DNA of 64,000 nt from Candidatus Heimdallarchaeum aukensis (lineage in GTDB: Archaea; Asgardarchaeota; Heimdallarchaeia; Heimdallarchaeales; Heimdallarchaeaceae), in the NCBI GenBank assembly GCA_021513695.1, contig CP084166.1:2176001-2240000 (forward strand). The letters are read 5' to 3'. The notes beneath the pieces are model-generated. The model was given only the letters and a program-made list of their open reading frames with translations, was not told the DNA's origin and ran no database searches. How positions within the stretch are numbered: position 1 is the stretch's first letter; each line of letters opens with the position of its first letter. The position numbers were made by a program, and so were the translations under genes. Shown one piece after another: positions 3,415 through 62,734 of the stretch.

Positions 3415-4863
3415 CTAAAAAGCATCTGTGTAAAGTTTTTCTAATTTTACGATAAAATCAGACCCACTAGGATAATTGTCTTGAAGAAAAATTTCTCCTC
3501 CAAAAGTATCTAAAGTTATTTTGATGAGGAAAAGGTTCATACCCCCTTTGTATAATCTCTTTTTATAATCTCTATGAAAAATTTCTTTTTTTTCTTTACT
3601 TGGTATTCCAATACCGTTATCCTTCACATGTACGAAAACATAGTTTTCTTTTTCCTCAACTTCAATCCAAACTTTAGCATTCTCTCCCGCATGGTGAACT
3701 GCGTTGCTTATTAACCCATAAAAAACAGAAAAAAGGAATTTATTTGCTTTTACAAAGATTTCTTTGTCCAATCCATACACGCACACATTTTCGAAAGCTA
3801 CTGCTGCAGCTTGTAAAACTTTTAGACTTATTGGTTTAATTTTGTCATCTACTAAAAATCCTTCTACAGCACCGATGTTAAATATTTTCTCTCTCATTTT
3901 TTTAATTCTATCAATTATCATCTCTTTAAACATAGAATCATTAGATTCAGAAAACATTTCTATGGCCGTCTCTATTACTGCAAGATCATTACGTAAATCT
4001 TGTTTCATTACATTAGTAAATGTTACAAGTTGTTTATTTACTCTATCAAGTTCCTCATAAAGCAAACGATATTGCTGTCTTTCTTGAATTATAGCAGAGA
4101 CCGTTTTAAAATTTAGGATATTTTGTTTAGATAAGATAATCCCTATTAGAATTGTACCTAAATATAAAAGATTGAATCCCCTGTAAATTTGCAAAAATAT
4201 CTCTCTTTGAAAGATTAAATACTTGAAAAAATAATAATCGCTAACAGTGAGCATAAGGTATGAAATAATCAAAAGCCCCCAATAATTTTGAGATCTCTTT
4301 GAATATATTGTAAAAAGAATTAAGAGGAGAATAAAAAAGGTAAAATCAAAAACCAAGAAAACTAGTAAAATGAATAGATCAAATTTTATTAGATGGTTGT
4401 TAGAAGCTATTTGAGAAAAATTGTTAACAATTTGAACAAAAAAGTCAAGGTATTGAACACTTAACAATAAACCGATAAAAATAGTCATCAATATTTGCTC
4501 ATAAAGATTTTTAAAATCATTCACGATTTGCTGGAAAATGATGAATAAAACTGGTATATAGCTAATGAATAAAATAGAATTCGCTAAAGAAAAAGAAATA
4601 GAATTAGCAAAAATTGAACTAATGATGAGAGAAACTTGAGAAAGCAAAACAAAAAACATAGACATTCCCAAAGCTTTAACAAAAATTTTCAGATTTCTAT
4701 CATGTATTCTTTTTGTAGAAAGACCAAGAACGCAAGCAGTACAAGAAATTACTAGGGTGCTTAGAAACAAAATACAATTTCCAACATTTTTTTTAAAAAT
4801 GGCGCTTAAAACAGCAATAGTATAAAGTAATGAACTTATTATCAGTATAGTGATGCGTTTCAT
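3415..4863 (-). CDS. Membrane-bound sensor histidine kinase
   Basis: The 482-aa ORF has about 8 N-terminal TM helices, a coiled-coil/DHp-like segment and a C-terminal HATPase_c (LISNAVHHAG...VKDNGIGIP...GGMNLFLIK...GGEIFL). Confidence 0.7.
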   Translation of the reverse strand: MKRITILIISSLLYTIAVLSAIFKKNVGNCILFLSTLVISCTACVLGLSTKRIHDRNLKIFVKALGMSMFFVLLSQVSLIISSIFANSISFSLANSILFISYIPVLFIIFQQIVNDFKNLYEQILMTIFIGLLLSVQYLDFFVQIVNNFSQIASNNHLIKFDLFILLVFLVFDFTFFILLLILFTIYSKRSQNYWGLLIISYLMLTVSDYYFFKYLIFQREIFLQIYRGFNLLYLGTILIGIILSKQNILNFKTVSAIIQERQQYRLLYEELDRVNKQLVTFTNVMKQDLRNDLAVIETAIEMFSESNDSMFKEMIIDRIKKMREKIFNIGAVEGFLVDDKIKPISLKVLQAAAVAFENVCVYGLDKEIFVKANKFLFSVFYGLISNAVHHAGENAKVWIEVEEKENYVFVHVKDNGIGIPSKEKKEIFHRDYKKRLYKGGMNLFLIKITLDTFGGEIFLQDNYPSGSDFIVKLEKLYTDAF

Positions 4864-8871: not shown

Positions 8872-8946
8872 ACCAAAATCACGAATAAACAGATTTTTAA
8901 ATATTCTCTCTTTTTTTTGCTCGATGACAATGCAGGTGATTTTTTA

Positions 8947-9225
8947 ATGCCAAAAAAGAGACGATCTGGAGGTAGAACAAGAGGGAAAAAAGGTATAGGA
9001 ACCCAAGTATCTTGTGCTGCTTGCGGACAACTTGTAGAAAAATCGAAAGCAAAGAAGTTTACCACTTATTCAAGTGGTATAGAATACAAGTTAGCCAAAG
9101 AAATACAAAGTGAAGGTGGATACATACCACGACAGAAGAAAGTTCAATATTATTGTGTTTCTTGCGCTATACACCGTCATAAAATTCGACCAGGTAGAAA
9201 AAGAGAAGAAAGAAAACGCAGATAA
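8947..9225 (+). CDS. rps26e: 30S ribosomal protein eS26
   Basis: MPKKRRSGGRTRGKKG...VSCAACGQLVEKSKAKKF...YYCVSCAIHRHKIRP is the S26e zinc-binding signature. The start is taken at MPKK rather than the upstream in-frame 8917. Confidence 0.85.
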   Translation: MPKKRRSGGRTRGKKGIGTQVSCAACGQLVEKSKAKKFTTYSSGIEYKLAKEIQSEGGYIPRQKKVQYYCVSCAIHRHKIRPGRKREERKRR

Positions 9226-22538: not shown

Positions 22539-22708
22539 AAAATAAAAGTCATACTATAAATTCGAAGAAAAAACAGAAAACCTATTTTTCCATTAAAACT
22601 TAAAGAAAAAATAAGAAATTCTTGAAGAAATCAGAAATTTTAAAAGAGAACGAGAGTAGGTCGACCAGAAACTGTTAAGTAACAGTAAAGTTGAAGTGAG
22701 GGTACAAA

Positions 22709-24202: not shown

Positions 24203-24320
24203 GCCGCGATAGCTTAGTCGGTAGAGCATTCGGCTGTTAATCTTAAGATTTGAATGCACTACGGGTGCGCAAGAGCAGCGCACCGAAAGGTCGTAGGTTC
24301 GAGTCCTACTCGCGGCGCCA
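24203..24320 (+). tRNA. tRNA-Asn(GUU) with a canonical 37/38 intron of about 42 nt and encoded CCA
   Basis: Acceptor GCCGCGA/TCGCGGC, D-arm GCTT-AGTCGGTA-GAGC, anticodon stem TTCGG/CCGAA, loop CTGTTA|intron|A, T-arm GTAGG-TTCGAGT-CCTAC, then G-CCA. Confidence 0.75.
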
Positions 24321-24527: not shown

Positions 24528-26915
24528 ATGAGCCATTTTTCAGTGTTAACTCTTTCTGTTCGCGAGCTTGTTGAGTATTCATTACGTTCTGGAAGTATTC
24601 AATCTAGTTTTTTTTCTTCTTATCGAATGCTTGATGGGATTGAAGGTCATAAATATGTTCAGAAAAAACGTCCTTCTACATATAAGAGTGAGGTTACTAT
24701 CTCTGGAAATATTTCTTTTCAAGGTTATTCTTTTACTCTTAGAGGGCGAATTGATGGGTTATTTCGTTCTTTAGATTATTTCGTTTTGGAGGAGATTAAG
24801 ACTACCTCCCGCCCTTTGTCCTCTATTACTCGAGATGATAATCCTCATTATTGGGCTCAGGCTAAATGTTACGCTTACCTTTATTCCAAAGAACACGATC
24901 TTTCCTCTATTGTTGTTCAACTTTGTTATTTTAATATTGATACAAAAAAAGAAAAAGCATTTTCTGAAGTTTACAATATTAAAGAGTTAGAGACTTTTGT
25001 TTTTTCCTTACTTGAGGAATATTTATCATGGATTAAACTTGTTATTAATGAGCGAGAAAAACGCGACTTATCTCTTTCTTCTTTTCTCTCTTTCCCTTTC
25101 CCTCAGTTCAGAAAAGGGCAGAAACAAATGATTGACTTTGTTCGTTCTCATATCTCTTCTGGTCAGATAGCCTTTTGTCAAGCTCCTACAGGTATAGGAA
25201 AAACCATTGCTGTGTTATATCCTGCCATAGAGTATCTTCAATCTGATCCCTCTGCTCAAATTTTTTATCTTACATCAAAGACAACGCAGAAAGCAATTGC
25301 TGAAAAAACCTTAGATCTCTTACGTAAAAATGGGTTGAAAATAAAATCTCTTACTCTTACCGCTAAGTCTCAGATTTGTTTTAAGGAAAAAAGTGTTTGT
25401 GATCCATCTTTATGTGAGTACGCTGATGGTCATTTTGATAGAATTAATGATGCGATAAAAGATATATTCCCTAAAGATTCTTTTACTAGAGAAAGAATTA
25501 CTAAATATGCTCAAAAGCATCGTGTTTGCCCTTTTGAGTTTTCTTTAGATCTTTCACTCTTTTCAGATTGTATAATTTGTGATTATAATTACCTTTTCGA
25601 TCCTCGGGTTAAATTAAAACGCTTTTTTGATTTTAATTCTGGTTCCTATGTTTTTCTTATTGATGAAGCACATAATTTGGTTGAACGTGCAAGAAACATG
25701 TTCTCTGCAGAGTTAAATAAACGAACTTTTTTGCTTTTAAAACGTAAAACAAAAGAGATTTTACCTCATATTTCAAAACTTTTGGGTGCTTTAAATAAAC
25801 ATATGATTAATTTCAGAAAAGATTGTGAGCAGAAAGGAAAAAGAGATATTGCTCTCCTTTCTCCGCCTAAAAAAGATTTTATTCGCGATCTTAAGAAATT
25901 CATTGTTGAAAGTGAAAAATGGTTGGCATTAAATATATTGACAGATTTTAGAGAAGAACTTTTGGAATTATATTTTGATGTTAGGAGTTTTCTTAACATT
26001 GCTGAATTGTATGACTCTAACTATGTGACTTATTACTCTAAGCAATCTAAAGGTGATCTATTAGTCAAGCTTTTCTGTATCGACCCTTCGATTCTAGTAA
26101 ATAAAGAATTAAAGAAAGGCCATTCTTCTATTTTCTTCTCTGCGACGCTTACTCCTTTAGATTACTATGTTAACTTACTTGTTGGCGAGCGAAGAAAAAA
26201 TATTCTCGAACTAGATTCTCCCTTTCCCCCAGAAAATTTTCTTGTTCTAATTAACGATACTATTTCTACAAAATATAAGGATAGAAATGAAACATTTAAT
26301 GAAATTGTTGAAGCTATTGTTTCTTTTATTGAAACAAAAAAAGGAAATTTCATGGTTTATTTTCCATCATACGAATATATGCAAAAAGTTGTTCCTTATG
26401 TAAAAGAGTATGAAAGAACTAGAGGAATGGAAATTATTGTTCAGGATAAAGAGATGAACGAAAGCGATAGAGAAATTTTTCTCAAGAAATTTCATAAACA
26501 TGGAAAAAGGACATTAGTTGGTTTCGTTGTTTTGGGCGGAGTTTTTGGTGAGAGCATAGATCTGGTTGGAGAAAAGTTGTCTGGAGTTGTAGTTGTTGGA
26601 GTAGGTTTACCAAAAATATGTTTTGAGAGAGAATTAATGAAGAACTACTTTGATGCAAAACTGAAACAAGGTTTTCACTATTCTTATACCTTTCCTGGGT
26701 TAAATAGAGTTCTTCAAGCAGTTGGAAGGTTGATAAGAACTGAAAAAGATAGGGGGGTAGTTTTATTAATCGATGATCGTTTCACAAACCCCACATACAA
26801 ACGACTTTTACCTTGTTATTGGAAAAACGTTATGATCGTAAAGAATAGTAGAGAAATAAGTATACACGCTCTAGAATTCTGGGAGAAAAAAAGAAAAAAA
26901 AAGAAAGTTGAATAG
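24528..26915 (+). CDS. XPD/Rad3/DinG-family Fe-S helicase fused to an N-terminal Cas4/RecB-like PD-(D/E)xK nuclease domain that lacks the Cys cluster
   Basis: The N-terminus has SVRELVEYSLRSG (Cas4-like motif I with Cys replaced by Ser), GRIDGLF (D), LEEIKT (ExK) and WAQAKCYAY (QhxxY). The helicase part has AFCQAPTGIGKT (Walker A), the 4-Cys Fe-S domain C..CDPSLCEYADGHF.., DEAHN (Walker B) and a C-terminal helicase_C_2 (VVVVGVGLP). Confidence 0.7.
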   Translation: MSHFSVLTLSVRELVEYSLRSGSIQSSFFSSYRMLDGIEGHKYVQKKRPSTYKSEVTISGNISFQGYSFTLRGRIDGLFRSLDYFVLEEIKTTSRPLSSITRDDNPHYWAQAKCYAYLYSKEHDLSSIVVQLCYFNIDTKKEKAFSEVYNIKELETFVFSLLEEYLSWIKLVINEREKRDLSLSSFLSFPFPQFRKGQKQMIDFVRSHISSGQIAFCQAPTGIGKTIAVLYPAIEYLQSDPSAQIFYLTSKTTQKAIAEKTLDLLRKNGLKIKSLTLTAKSQICFKEKSVCDPSLCEYADGHFDRINDAIKDIFPKDSFTRERITKYAQKHRVCPFEFSLDLSLFSDCIICDYNYLFDPRVKLKRFFDFNSGSYVFLIDEAHNLVERARNMFSAELNKRTFLLLKRKTKEILPHISKLLGALNKHMINFRKDCEQKGKRDIALLSPPKKDFIRDLKKFIVESEKWLALNILTDFREELLELYFDVRSFLNIAELYDSNYVTYYSKQSKGDLLVKLFCIDPSILVNKELKKGHSSIFFSATLTPLDYYVNLLVGERRKNILELDSPFPPENFLVLINDTISTKYKDRNETFNEIVEAIVSFIETKKGNFMVYFPSYEYMQKVVPYVKEYERTRGMEIIVQDKEMNESDREIFLKKFHKHGKRTLVGFVVLGGVFGESIDLVGEKLSGVVVVGVGLPKICFERELMKNYFDAKLKQGFHYSYTFPGLNRVLQAVGRLIRTEKDRGVVLLIDDRFTNPTYKRLLPCYWKNVMIVKNSREISIHALEFWEKKRKKKKVE

Positions 26916-26935: not shown

Positions 26936-27586
26936 TCACTTAATGAATCTTTTTCTTAGTTCTGAAGCATTAATTTGAGTTATCACTTCGATGTCTTTTT
27001 CTTTTAATCCTGCACCTAAAATGAGATCGGAAACTCTTTTCTGAGAAAGCATGTCTGAAGGAGCATGTGTGTCTGAATTTACTAACATCTTGGCATTATA
27101 TTTTTTAGCTAGTCTGGCTACATGACCATTAGTAAAACTATGTCCCTTTCTTCCAGAAAGTTCGAGGAAAACATCGTTTTCAACAGCGAGCTTGACTTCT
27201 TCTTCAGTAATTAAACCTGGATGAGCAAGGATATCAACATAACCCGAATTTAAAGCAGCAAAATTCGTTCCTTTTCTAACAGGTTCAACTATTGTTTCAC
27301 CATGAACAACAACCAGTAAACCAGCTTGCTTTGCTTTTTTAGCTAACTCTGGTATTCTAGACGGAAGAACGTGTGTGATTTCTACCCCTGGAATAACTTC
27401 TATCATATCACTTTCGTTTAACATCTTGGAAAGCTCAATTATAACACGATCAATAGTTGAAACATCAACATGGTCTGTTATAGCTATGGAAGTATAACCA
27501 TTTGCTTCTGCTCTACGAACAAGTTCTGAAGGAAGTAAAAAACCATCCGAAAGAATGGTGTGCATATGAAAATCTGTAAAGGACAT
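26936..27586 (-). CDS. PHP-domain phosphoesterase
   Basis: The 216-aa ORF starts MSFTDFHMHTILSDG...ITDH and has downstream His/Asp ligands (VHGE, DTHAPSD). Confidence 0.7.
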   Translation of the reverse strand: MSFTDFHMHTILSDGFLLPSELVRRAEANGYTSIAITDHVDVSTIDRVIIELSKMLNESDMIEVIPGVEITHVLPSRIPELAKKAKQAGLLVVVHGETIVEPVRKGTNFAALNSGYVDILAHPGLITEEEVKLAVENDVFLELSGRKGHSFTNGHVARLAKKYNAKMLVNSDTHAPSDMLSQKRVSDLILGAGLKEKDIEVITQINASELRKRFIK

Positions 27587-27672
27587 AAAAAAAAATTTGG
27601 AGCTAACTAATTAATATTTTCATCAGTAATAAGAGAGAAAAATGAGGAACAATAAAAAAAGAAAGATTCGTG

Positions 27673-28647
27673 CTATTCGTATATTTTTTTAATATGATAC
27701 GTTAGGTTAGTATCCGAGTTTTTTACATGACTGGTGTGTCTAACAATTAGTTCTGTCATGAAACCTGAAAGCAAGAATTGGAAACCAGATAAGCCAAGAA
27801 GTAAAGTCAGTAGTAGTAAAGGACGGTCACCTATATCTTGCCCTAATGCATATTTAACTATTAACAAGTAAGTACCTAAAGAAAAAGCTGTTAGTAAGAA
27901 TAAAAACCCAATTTGAGCAAATAATCGAATTGGTTTTTGATTATAATTGGATAAGAGTTTAATCATAAACAAGTCAAAAAAACCAGAAAAAAGACGATTG
28001 AAGCCATATTTACTCTTTCCTTTAGCACGAGGACGATGATGAACTTTAACTTCAGAAATATTAAAACCTTGATGATGCAATATTGCAGGAATAAAACGGT
28101 GTTCTCCTCGCATCAAAGAAAGGTTCTTTACCGCTTCTATACGATATAGCCGAAGAGTACAGCCACTATCATGAATAGTCAAGTGATTGAGTTTTCGGTT
28201 GAGAAAATTAGAAAAACGAGAGGGAAGAATTTTGCGAAAGAAAGGATCATGACGGGGATGACGCCAACCACAAACAACATCAACATCTTCAGTCATAGCA
28301 TTTAGTAATAAGGGAATATCATGGGGGTCATTTTGACCATCGGCATCAAGAGAAAGAACTAAATCCCCACGAGCATGCTGAAAACCAGCTAGGAGAGCCG
28401 CTGTTTGACCAAAATTTCGACGAAAGTCAATGATTCTGACATGGGATTGATCATTGGAATAGATGTCTTTTAAAACAGATAAACTGTTATCTGTAGAACC
28501 GTCATTAATGAAAATAATTTCATAAGGAGTATTTAGTGAAGGAAGAACTTCCTGAATCTCAGAATAGAGTGAATAAAGAGATTCTTCTTCATTATAGACT
28601 GGAATAACAATAGAAAGCATTGAAAGAAGTAAGAATGAAGAGAACAA
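27673..28647 (-). CDS. Family-2 glycosyltransferase with C-terminal TM anchors (dolichyl/polyprenyl-phosphate sugar synthase-like)
   Basis: IVIPVYNEEESL, INDGSTDNS and a DADGQNDP (DxD) motif, with 2 C-terminal TM helices. Confidence 0.75.
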   Translation of the reverse strand: MFSSFLLLSMLSIVIPVYNEEESLYSLYSEIQEVLPSLNTPYEIIFINDGSTDNSLSVLKDIYSNDQSHVRIIDFRRNFGQTAALLAGFQHARGDLVLSLDADGQNDPHDIPLLLNAMTEDVDVVCGWRHPRHDPFFRKILPSRFSNFLNRKLNHLTIHDSGCTLRLYRIEAVKNLSLMRGEHRFIPAILHHQGFNISEVKVHHRPRAKGKSKYGFNRLFSGFFDLFMIKLLSNYNQKPIRLFAQIGFLFLLTAFSLGTYLLIVKYALGQDIGDRPLLLLTLLLGLSGFQFLLSGFMTELIVRHTSHVKNSDTNLTYHIKKIYE

Positions 28648-28749
28648 TAAACTTTTCGAAAAAAATCATAAACTGTAATAAAAGAAAGTAAATATTGAAG
28701 CTATAAACTTGCTTTTTCAATAACAAATAACAAAAGTTGTTAAAATTGT

Positions 28750-28859
28750 TGGTGGACTGGGGGGGATTTTCAGATTCAGCGCACACAGCGCCGGAAAATC
28801 TATTGAACCCCCGGCCTCTTCGGTGCAAGCGAAGCGTTCTTCCTCTGAACTACCAGCCC
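28750..28859 (-). tRNA. tRNA-Ala(UGC) with the G3:U70 identity pair, a roughly 35-nt intron in the T-loop and encoded CCA
   Basis: Reverse complement: GGGCTGG-TA-GTTC-AGAGGAA-GAAC-G-CTTCG-CTTGCAC-CGAAG-AGGCC-GGGGG-TTCAA[TAGATTTTCCGGCGCTGTGTGCGCTGAATCTGAAA]AT-CCCCC-CCAGTCC-A-CCA. G3 pairs with T70. Confidence 0.7.
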
Positions 28860-29236
28860 ACGCCTTGTTTTTGTTTTCTATTCTTTAAACACTTTGTGTT
28901 AATTATCTTTTTTTTGTTCCTTTTTTTAAACTTTCGATTTGTAGCATCAATTTGATTTTTGTACTTTTTTTGAATACAATGCTCGCACTTGGATGAGTTC
29001 AGAGGAAAAAAATACCTATTATTGAGCAAGAGGTAATGATTGAGTTCTTCTTGACAACAGAAATCAGAAACAATTGGTGTTTCTTCTAATATAGGAAAGG
29101 AAGATGAGAAGTTTGAGAATTAAAGAGTGGAAGCGAGTTTTTTTATTTTTTAAAAGAAATACTATGAGGTTGTCAAGTCATTGATAGCCTTAAACCAACA
29201 TTTTTTGATTCTTTTTCTTATTAGTCTTATTATTTT

Positions 29237-30256: not shown

Positions 30257-30377
30257 TGGAGCCCTGGGCGTGATTTGAACACGCGACAACTGGATTGCTG
30301 CACAAGTGCTGAAACAATTTAGTTTTTCAGCGTTTTTGGTTCTTCAGTCCAGCGCTCTCCCGCTAAGCTACCAGGGC
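30257..30377 (-). tRNA. tRNA-Phe(GAA) with a roughly 46-nt intron at 37/38 and encoded CCA
   Basis: Reverse complement: GCCCTGG-TA-GCTT-AGCGGGA-GAGC-G-CTGGA-CTGAAG[intron]A-TCCAG-TTGTC-GCGTG-TTCAAAT-CACGC-CCAGGGC-T-CCA. Confidence 0.75.
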
Positions 30378-45435: not shown

Positions 45436-46245
45436 CTATTCATCAAAAACTGCAGTTTTTCTAGCAAACATCAAGTATCCCGTGTGAGCGACATATTGCC
45501 ATGTCTTTGGTCTAATAGCATTTTCTTTTAACTGCATTTCTCGTTCGATTAATTCTATAGCTTTTATGTCAGTAAAATTGTTTTCTTTTAAGCTGATGTA
45601 TGTTTTTTCTAATTGATTAGCAGTAGGAATGAAAAGTGTTATCGTTCCGGATGGTTTTAATGATTCCTTTGCAAATGGAATAATTTCCCATGGATCTGCT
45701 AGATCCAAGAAAACACAATCGACATTCCTCTCTTCAAATCCTTTTTTTGCATCGGCCAATTTGAAGGTTATATACTCTGATAGCCCTAACCCTAATCTTT
45801 CTATGTTTTTCTTTGCAATGTTGTGTGCTTGTTCTCTGACCTCATAAGTAAAAACATGTCCTGTTGGTTGGACATATGTTGCTAGAACCGAAGTTAATGC
45901 TCCGCTTCCAGTTCCAGCTTCAATAATTCTTGTACCTGGCTTAATTCCGCTGTTTAAAATGATATATCCTAAATCTTTGGGGTAAATGATCTGTGATTTA
46001 AATTCAAAGTGATGAAGATAATCAGTGAGTAAAGGTTTGTAAATAAATAGTCTAATCCCTTTGTTAGTAACTATGGAAAGACCATAAGGTTTCCCAATAA
46101 TGTCATTAAATTCGAAAAAACCTTTATTGCAGTGAAATTTTTTATTTTCTTCGACTTTCCTTATCCATTTTCTTCTATTATCAAATACAATCAACACTCG
46201 GTCATTGTTTTTTATGCAATTGTTTTTTTTACAATCTTCGCTCAA
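45436..46245 (-). CDS. trmI: tRNA (adenine57/58-N1)-methyltransferase TrmI
   Basis: IIEAGTGSGALTSVLATYV is SAM motif I. VFLDLADPWE and the overall 269-aa GCD14/TrmI layout are present. Confidence 0.75.
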   Translation of the reverse strand: MSEDCKKNNCIKNNDRVLIVFDNRRKWIRKVEENKKFHCNKGFFEFNDIIGKPYGLSIVTNKGIRLFIYKPLLTDYLHHFEFKSQIIYPKDLGYIILNSGIKPGTRIIEAGTGSGALTSVLATYVQPTGHVFTYEVREQAHNIAKKNIERLGLGLSEYITFKLADAKKGFEERNVDCVFLDLADPWEIIPFAKESLKPSGTITLFIPTANQLEKTYISLKENNFTDIKAIELIEREMQLKENAIRPKTWQYVAHTGYLMFARKTAVFDE

Positions 46246-56278: not shown

Positions 56279-60091
<3,813 letters not shown>

Positions 60092-62019: not shown

Positions 62020-62418
<399 letters not shown>

Positions 62419-62425
62419 CTAAAAA

Positions 62426-62734
<309 letters not shown>

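Follow-up and report, generated by a model that had tools for sequence, protein, structure and literature searches.

In archaeal tRNA splicing, the endonuclease EndA recognises the bulge-helix-bulge (BHB) motif wherever it is located and an RtcB-type ligase joins the exons (PMC6379350, PMC4090602). Position 59/60, within the T-loop, is one of the listed non-canonical positions of archaeal tRNA introns (PMC4090602), and the 59/60 intron of ARMAN-2 tRNA-Cys, which is of the hBH form, has served as an enzymatic substrate (PMC5829648). Thermoproteales and Crenarchaeota carry non-canonical as well as multiple tRNA introns, with gain, loss and transposition (PMC4090602). The non-canonical introns of Asgard genomes have been tabulated already, and Asgard archaea are reported to possess an (alpha-beta)2 EndA with an L1 loop (PMC5829648). 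Since position 59/60 and Asgard non-canonical introns are both already described, the tRNA-Ala intron reported here adds an example, not a mechanism, and leaves the understanding of how archaeal tRNA introns work unchanged.

The window, by which we mean the whole stretch of 64,000 nt that was analysed (G+C 32%), comes from the Asgard archaeon Ca. Heimdallarchaeum aukensis (Heimdallarchaeia), whose lineage is among the closest known archaeal relatives of eukaryotes. An earlier note on this DNA, made from the sequence alone, had presented non-canonical introns as typical of Thermoproteales and some DPANN archaea; the host is instead an Asgard archaeon. The PHP-domain protein encoded beside the tRNA gene (26936-27586) is 99% identical to its counterpart in Ca. 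Heimdallarchaeum endolithica, and another protein of the window has an exact match in the host species:

62020-62373: DUF5752 protein, exact match to UJG40155.1 of Ca. Heimdallarchaeum aukensis

At this locus lies a genuine alanine tRNA gene whose T-loop is broken by an intron of 35 bases. The earlier note had proposed just this, a tRNA-Ala(UGC) with a BHB-type T-loop intron of about 35 nt, and the strict motif, the intron of a sister species and covariation all support it. The gene is made up as follows:

28750..28859, minus strand: whole pre-tRNA-Ala(UGC) gene, 110 nt, with an encoded 3′ CCA (28752..28750), from the sequence read and the MFE fold
28802..28859, minus strand: exon 1, pre-tRNA nt 1-58, with the acceptor 5′ strand, D-arm, anticodon arm, variable loop and T-stem 5′ strand
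28767..28801, minus strand: predicted intron, 35 nt, AGAUUUUCCGGCGCUGUGUGCGCUGAAUCUGAAAA, at tRNA position 59/60, a strict hBHBh′ match unique in the window
28750..28766, minus strand: exon 2, pre-tRNA nt 94-110, with U60, CCCCC (28765..28761), CCAGUCC, A73 and CCA

Read in order, the precursor consists of GGGCUGG, UA, the D-arm GUUC-AGAGGAA-GAAC, a single G, the anticodon arm CUUCG-CUUGCAC-CGAAG with the anticodon UGC at 28827..28825, the variable loop AGGCC, the T-stem 5′ strand GGGGG (28812..28808), 42 nt, CCCCC, CCAGUCC, A and CCA. The acceptor stem GGGCUGG/CCAGUCC has 7 bp and contains the pair G3:U70 (U70 at 28756, in exon 2), the discriminator is A73, and exon 1 ends, after GGGGG, with T-loop nucleotides 54-59 (UUCAAU). 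Between its two strands, GGGGG and CCCCC, the T-stem encloses 42 nt, the standard being 7. The MFE fold of the 110 nt (RNAfold) is a cloverleaf with a hairpin inside the T-loop, at -44 kcal/mol (z = -2.78; 0/200 shuffles as stable), and together with the sequence read it bears out the perfect cloverleaf, G3:U70 and 42-nt T-loop that had been described for this locus before.

Within this enlarged loop, the T-loop bases and the intron form a strict helix-bulge-helix-bulge-helix (hBHBh′) motif, the parts of which are, from 5′ to 3′ along the transcript:

28804..28807, minus strand: helix H 5′ strand, T-loop U54 U55 C56 A57 (UUCA), pairing with UGAA at 28772..28769
28801..28803, minus strand: 5′ bulge B1 (A58 U59 / intron A1), predicted 5′ cleavage between 28802 and 28801
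28797..28800, minus strand: helix h′ 5′ strand GAUU, pairing with AAUC at 28776..28773
28796..28794, minus strand: UUC bulge preceding the distal hairpin
28777..28793, minus strand: distal intron hairpin CGGCGC-UGUGU-GCGCUG, from the MFE fold, partly conserved in Ca. H. endolithica
28773..28776, minus strand: helix h′ 3′ strand AAUC, pairing with GAUU
28769..28772, minus strand: helix H 3′ strand UGAA, within the intron, pairing with T-loop UUCA
28766..28768, minus strand: 3′ bulge B2 (intron A, A / U60), predicted 3′ cleavage between 28767 and 28766

The two bulges, AUA and AAU, have 3 nt each and lie on opposite strands with 4 bp (UUCA/UGAA) between them; of the flanking helices, for which at least 2 bp suffice, h is the T-stem (5 bp) and h′ consists of GAUU/AAUC plus U.G (5 bp). 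A strict hBHBh′ scan of the whole gene gave a single sensible match (h = 5, h′ = 5, product 75 nt), the other strict match being meaningless in that its excision would delete the tRNA core. When the 42-nt insert was shuffled 200,000 times, the strict motif appeared in the fixed register, which is the sole register restoring a 7-nt T-loop, in 0.5% of shuffles if h′ was required to have 2 bp or more and in 0.08% if 4 bp or more were required, the observed h′ being 5 bp. The splice position follows from the rule that EndA cleaves after the second base of each bulge, which places the end of exon 1 at U59 (28802) and the start of exon 2 at U60 (28766), that is, at 59/60. We tested the rule on the 37/38 intron of a tRNA-Ala orthologue (L143, below), where nt 32-35 form H, one bulge is made of 36, 37 and I1, and the other of I, I and 38. 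Of the boundary given in the earlier note, the length of 35 nt stands, while its 58/59 junction gives way to 59/60 (UUCAAU/AGAUU...GAAAA/U); similarly, the GGCGC/GCGCU hairpin that it took for a BHB-like motif does exist, as the distal tip of the intron, and is not itself the BHB. The BHB fold is computed at -40.1 kcal/mol, 3.9 kcal/mol higher than the MFE of -44.0, which favours UAGAUU/AAUCUG over UUCA/UGAA; it appears less stable because nearest-neighbour energies penalise bulges.

Other classes of insert do not fit. The relaxed hBH and HBh′ classes are ruled out for the window intron, as neither bulge is disrupted. Self-splicing group I and group II introns have a ribozyme core of hundreds of nucleotides; the insert has 35 nt, and positions 28650..28960 match no Rfam intron family at E <= 10. 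The archaeal tRNA-Trp intron has an embedded C/D-box guide RNA, and in this intron there are two CUGA motifs and no C box (RUGAUGA), 35 nt also being too short.

Standard tools do poorly on the interrupted gene. On the unspliced DNA, ARAGORN makes a forced 75-nt call at 28786..28860 in which acceptor pairs are mismatched, the T-stem consists of wobble pairs throughout and the T-loop has 9 nt, whereas once the 35 nt are taken out it returns a flawless 75-nt tRNA-Ala(UGC) with a 7-nt T-loop, accepting the 59/60 and 58/59 versions equally. The best intron-free alignment to the Rfam tRNA model scores 28.8 bits (gathering score 29), compared with 55-63 bits for the other tRNAs of the window and 63.8 bits for an intron-less orthologue (L008, below). 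Taken alone, the finding is chiefly relevant to annotation, as an essential tRNA-Ala of Heimdallarchaeum is overlooked or wrongly called by ARAGORN and Rfam, a case of the "missing tRNA" problem that has been noted before for Asgard genomes (PMC5829648).

The same gene is present in Ca. H. endolithica (CP084167.1, L003), where it has 114 nt and its T-stem encloses 46 nt, and this version recurs in two independent Logan contigs (L004, L006) and a metagenome contig (L137). The insert of 39 nt occupies the same site, and its 3′ two-thirds align with the window intron, so that the intron is homologous in both Heimdallarchaeum species. Helix H is UUCA/UGAA in the window and UUCG/CGAA in Ca. H. endolithica, a compensatory change (A57:U to G57:C, found in Ca. 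H. endolithica, L137 and L136), and the anticodon stem differs by two further compensatory pair changes (CUUCG/CGAAG versus AUUCA/UGAAU). Compensatory pair changes between species argue that the gene is selected for tRNA function. In the Ca. H. endolithica intron the 3′ bulge AAU is intact and the MFE fold itself contains the T-stem, H and this bulge; the 5′ side, there and in L137, has no clean 3-nt bulge and represents the relaxed hBH form. The strict (Ca. H. aukensis) and relaxed (Ca. H. endolithica) 59/60 introns make up a substrate pair for the specificity of Asgard EndA.

Heimdallarchaeia that are less closely related show other intron states at the same place. In the window, tRNA-Ala(UGC) stands directly upstream of a GT2 gene. 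Two loci with a GT2 that is 63% identical (L008, L009) have a syntenic tRNA-Ala without an intron directly upstream of the same GT2 gene, and five more (L143-L147; GT2 57-58% identical; assemblies GCA_025960485.1, GCA_030626525.1 and GCA_023705985.1) have a syntenic tRNA-Ala in which a 27-nt intron lies at 37/38 and the T-loop is uninterrupted. As the versions with no intron, with a 37/38 intron and with a 59/60 intron all lie upstream of the same GT2, they represent one orthologous gene that has undergone intron turnover. One syntenic tRNA-Ala in three intron states across Heimdallarchaeia offers a natural series for the study of intron gain and loss.

The surroundings of the gene are less stable. 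A 1.3-kb segment with GT2 and tRNA-Ala (window 27648..28970, L003 8596..9909) is inverted relative to Ca. H. endolithica and shows 81% identity to it, versus 98% for the adjacent PHP-XPD region. Four loci (L007, L138-L140) have a GT2 of the window type, at 97-98% nucleotide identity over the GT2-PHP-XPD region, and no tRNA upstream; from its absence at this site in such close strains it follows that the location of the gene is not fixed. The region adjoining tRNA-Ala is thus a local rearrangement hot spot. As a synteny marker the PHP-domain gene was poor, its homologues being scattered across bacteria, although its three closest matches still gave useful loci. The XPD/Rad3-type helicase gene (24528..26915, plus strand; DEAD_2, HBB and Helicase_C_2 domains), which encodes an N-terminal PD-(D/E)XK nuclease-like domain, is kept in related loci. 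Upstream of tRNA-Ala there is a conserved A-rich block and downstream there are T-runs, a promoter not being confidently assignable.

T-loop introns at the same position occur in tRNA-Ala(UGC) genes of other archaea. Searching metagenomes by pattern for a tRNA-Ala(UGC) whose T-loop holds an insert retrieved eight loci (L130-L137), of which L137 is of the Ca. H. endolithica type; the others, all with a 59/60 intron, are:

L130, 153-245: tRNA-Ala(UGC) with 59/60 T-loop intron
L131, 704-796: tRNA-Ala(UGC) with 59/60 T-loop intron
L132, 3941-4058: tRNA-Ala(UGC) with 59/60 T-loop intron
L133, 362-453: tRNA-Ala(UGC) with 59/60 T-loop intron
L134, 752-840, minus strand: tRNA-Ala(UGC) with 59/60 T-loop intron
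L135, 4674-4768, minus strand: tRNA-Ala(UGC) with 59/60 T-loop intron
L136, 401-492, minus strand: tRNA-Ala(UGC) with 59/60 T-loop intron

These introns are 17-42 nt long. In the first six loci (L130-L135) the tRNA-Ala lies in the 16S-23S spacer of archaeal rRNA operons with 50-60% G+C, and the L136 contig has 40% G+C. Five introns of 17-23 nt (L130, L133, L134, L135, L136) are strict hBHBh′ at 59/60, given a search pattern that fixed TTCR...YGAA and the 3′ register and left h′ and B1 free. The tRNA sequence of L131 equals that of L130. The intron of L132 is relaxed, with a disrupted 5′ bulge. L132 comes from a Thermoplasmatota archaeon, its SAM synthetase sharing 96% identity with the protein of a Thermoplasmatota MAG; Euryarchaeota have been described as having introns at the canonical position only (PMC4090602). 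A genome-contig scan with a pattern that was too general (GGGCNGGTAGTTCAG...TTGCA......AGGNC) gave no Heimdallarchaeia among the matches listed, which were tRNA-Ala genes of Bathyarchaeia and Nitrososphaeria. Two Nitrososphaerales tRNA-Ala(UGC) genes of 97 and 95 nt (L039, minus strand, match 3635-3682; L046, plus strand, match 1192-1239) have an insert of about 20 nt beside the T-stem 5′ strand, GCGGG-AGGCCCGAAAGGGUCCGCGAG-UUCAAUU.

We measured covariation over seven distinct T-loop-intron tRNA-Ala sequences in a composite alignment of 34 columns, which comprised the T-stem, H, B1 and the first 3 bp of h′ per side, joined by a fixed GAAA linker. The set was partly selected for the motif, in that the search pattern prescribed H in part, as well as the register on the 3′ side. 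Pairing holds in 95.2% of cells, double-sided changes affect 6 of the 12 pairs and none of 500 shuffles reaches the score; the signal is destroyed when the partner is slid by 1-3 columns. The three scored pairs of h′ all covary among the seven sequences. The single compensatory change in H is weaker evidence, because the pattern allowed R and Y independently. One idea is that 59/60 introns arise repeatedly, in Heimdallarchaeum and in the rRNA-operon tRNA-Ala of Thermoplasmatota, because UUCR in the T-loop provides a ready-made half of helix H; an alternative idea is that such introns break the attachment sites of mobile elements that target tRNA genes.

Taken together, this is very probably a functional tRNA-Ala(UGC) gene, from whose 110-nt precursor the strict-BHB intron is excised at 59/60 to give a 75-nt tRNA. 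We infer cleavage, ligation and the order of events from established EndA biology. The locus would be transcribed as a 110-nt precursor, in which T-loop U54-A57 would pair with UGAA close to the 3′ end of the intron to form the strict motif. EndA would then cleave two bases into each bulge, leaving U59 as the last base of exon 1 and U60 as the first of exon 2, and an RtcB-type ligase would join the exons into a 75-nt tRNA with the T-loop UUCAAUU, the predicted mature junction for 59/60 being ...GGGGGUUCAAU-UCCCCC; the 35-nt intron would be released, probably as a circle. With U54-A57 locked in helix H, neither the U54-A58 pair nor the D-loop contacts could form before splicing, and because these T-loop contacts are blocked by the intron, splicing would precede final L-shape folding and T-loop modification. 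Two methyltransferase genes of the window belong to families that act on the T-loop, the part interrupted by the intron: a TrmI/GCD14-type tRNA methyltransferase (45436..46245, minus strand), whose family carries the annotation m1A58 methyltransferase, and an RNA methyltransferase of PF04013 (9287..9892, plus strand), which we take to be TrmY-like, a pseudouridine-54 N1-methyltransferase.

The same intron might be spliced one nucleotide earlier, at 58/59 (UUCAA/UAGAU...CUGAAA/AU), although we regard this as improbable. Its product would have the T-loop UUCAAAU, identical with the T-loop of the intron-less orthologue L008, ARAGORN favours neither spliced version over the other, and the -1 register also passes the strict scan in two of the metagenome loci (L130, L135). 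In the window, however, only the 59/60 register passes, since in the -1 register G53 would be opposite an A and the central helix of 4 bp is lost. Moreover, when applied to L143 the cleavage rule used here recovers the canonical 37/38 site, and position 59 of the T-loop is not conserved.

Splicing at 59/60 also accounts better for the locus than the two readings in which nothing is spliced at all. If the gene were dead, the 35 nt would never be removed and a second tRNA-Ala(UGC) elsewhere would do the work. The failure of standard tools (the forced ARAGORN call; 28.8 bits in Rfam) and the rearrangement of the locus between strains could be read in this way, but the exons are perfectly compatible with a cloverleaf, three stem pairs (two in the anticodon stem and one in H) have changed in a compensatory manner between species, a homologous insert is kept in two species, and the strict BHB lies in the sole register that restores a 7-nt loop, all of which makes a dead gene very unlikely. 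Least credible, and only just worth entertaining, is that the insert is the scar or attachment site of a mobile element integrated in the 3′ part of the tRNA gene. Heimdallarchaeum genomes do contain many elements integrated at tRNA genes (PMC8813620), and between the two species the segment with GT2 and tRNA-Ala differs in orientation and shares only 81% identity; yet within the 64 kb there is neither a duplicated tRNA 3′ end nor a second copy of the insert, no integrase is found among the neighbours, and duplication of an att site does not produce 35 nt with a strict BHB.

Two more tRNA genes of the window, both missed by ARAGORN, contain introns in the anticodon loop, confirming what the earlier note had said of tRNA-Asn and tRNA-Phe:

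24203..24317, plus strand: tRNA-Asn(GUU), 115 nt, anticodon-loop intron with CUGU/GCAG and a 4-nt 3′ bulge
30260..30377, minus strand: tRNA-Phe(GAA), 118 nt, anticodon-loop intron with no perfect 4-bp H in register

The earlier note had held that the tRNA-Ala intron requires a relaxed-specificity endonuclease. Its strict motif does not by itself demand one, but the genome needs a relaxed-specificity EndA anyway, because the introns of tRNA-Asn and tRNA-Phe depart from the strict form. The earlier remark that no endA was seen in the window agrees with our scan, in which none of 40 of the 49 window ORFs of at least 90 aa had a tRNA-intron-endonuclease Pfam domain and none was recognised as an RtcB-type ligase; the nine ORFs outside the scan are a 102-aa ORF at 8917-9225 and eight proteins of at least 476 aa.

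A second candidate for unusual RNA processing lies near the end of the window:

62497..62617 (flanks to about 62480 and 62640), minus strand: circularly permuted 5S rRNA gene, from the sequence read, fold and alignment

The 3′ two-thirds of the 5S sequence come first (62617..62549, AGUUAAGCC...GGGAAGGGCCAUUCGCUGCGA), followed by UUCG and by the 5′ third (62544..62497, UCGCGGCCAUAGCGGCAGGGUAACACUCAGACUCAUUCCGAACCUGAA). In a permissive scan, Rfam gave a weak 5S match at 62546..62640 (minus strand; 25.2 bits, threshold 38). When the two parts are put back in their usual succession, the resulting 117 nt adopt the three-way fold of 5S rRNA and are colinear with a bona fide archaeal 5S rRNA, at 76% over 102 nt; in the genomic order, the alignment consists of two swapped blocks. 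The same permuted arrangement is found in six further independent assemblies (L244-L248, L250), which differ by one or two substitutions, one of them keeping a helix II pair as G.U. Pattern scans of viral contigs for a permuted 5S gave chance matches only, and no relative beyond about 98% identity was retrieved. The leader (GUGGU-CAGG-AAA) and trailer (CCUG-AAA-ACCAC) can form an h-B-H-B structure (hBH motif), which alone is weak evidence because other hBH matches arise by chance in this A/U-rich region. Cutting after the second bulge base and ligation would give CCUGAA-AGUUAAGCC, the usual 5S sequence, and would rebuild a normal 5S as a circle closed by the UUCG loop.

No 5S gene was found in the closed Heimdallarchaeum genomes by Wu et al. 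(PMC8813620), permuted 5S genes are known, in the literature that we searched, from organelles only (PMC4267664), and a recent paper has archaeal 5S as not circularised (PMC12918454). The T-loop intron may be one sign of an unusually wide use of BHB motifs, EndA and ligase for RNA cutting and rejoining in Heimdallarchaeum, a suggestion that we put forward tentatively. If it is true, Heimdallarchaeum assembles a ribosomal RNA via the tRNA-splicing machinery, which would explain the absence of an annotated 5S gene in its closed genomes. The permuted 5S is probably of more interest than the T-loop intron.

Also in this part of the window, a GyrA-like topoisomerase subunit of 1269 aa (56282..60091, plus strand) contains an intein with a LAGLIDADG homing-endonuclease domain. 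According to domain lists, three related contigs (L244-L246) encode a 646-aa GyrA-like product without intein domains and a fourth (L247) the 1269-aa form; the intein may be a presence/absence polymorphism among related contigs. Elsewhere, at 22605..22688 (plus strand), there is a sub-threshold Rfam match to RAGATH-30 RNA (36.6 bits versus 59.5; E = 0.0028 in the whole-window search).

Among described systems, the pre-tRNA-Cys(GCA) of ARMAN-2 (Ca. Micrarchaeum) is one of those closest to the tRNA-Ala gene. Both have an intron at 59/60 in the T-loop, the T-stem as outer helix and the T-loop as half of H, and in both an EndA-type cleavage is inferred. The ARMAN-2 intron is a relaxed hBH that needs a broad-specificity enzyme (epsilon2 or alpha-beta), whereas that of the window is a strict hBHBh′ in tRNA-Ala(UGC) of an Asgard host. 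With Thermoproteales and Crenarchaeota the locus shares an intron outside 37/38 and the variation of intron presence and place among related lineages. It differs in phylum and in giving no sign of intron families common to different tRNAs: the tRNA-Ala intron has no second copy in the window, and the three introns found there are without obvious similarity when compared by eye. The canonical 37/38 introns (Asn and Phe in the window, Ala in L143-L147) have the same plan, namely a 7-nt loop on a 5-bp stem, an intron inserted behind base six of the loop, loop bases one to four in H and the last loop base in the 3′ bulge. Unlike them, the intron described here uses the T-loop and not the anticodon loop, and its agreement with the strict motif is closer than that of the Asn and Phe introns of the same window.
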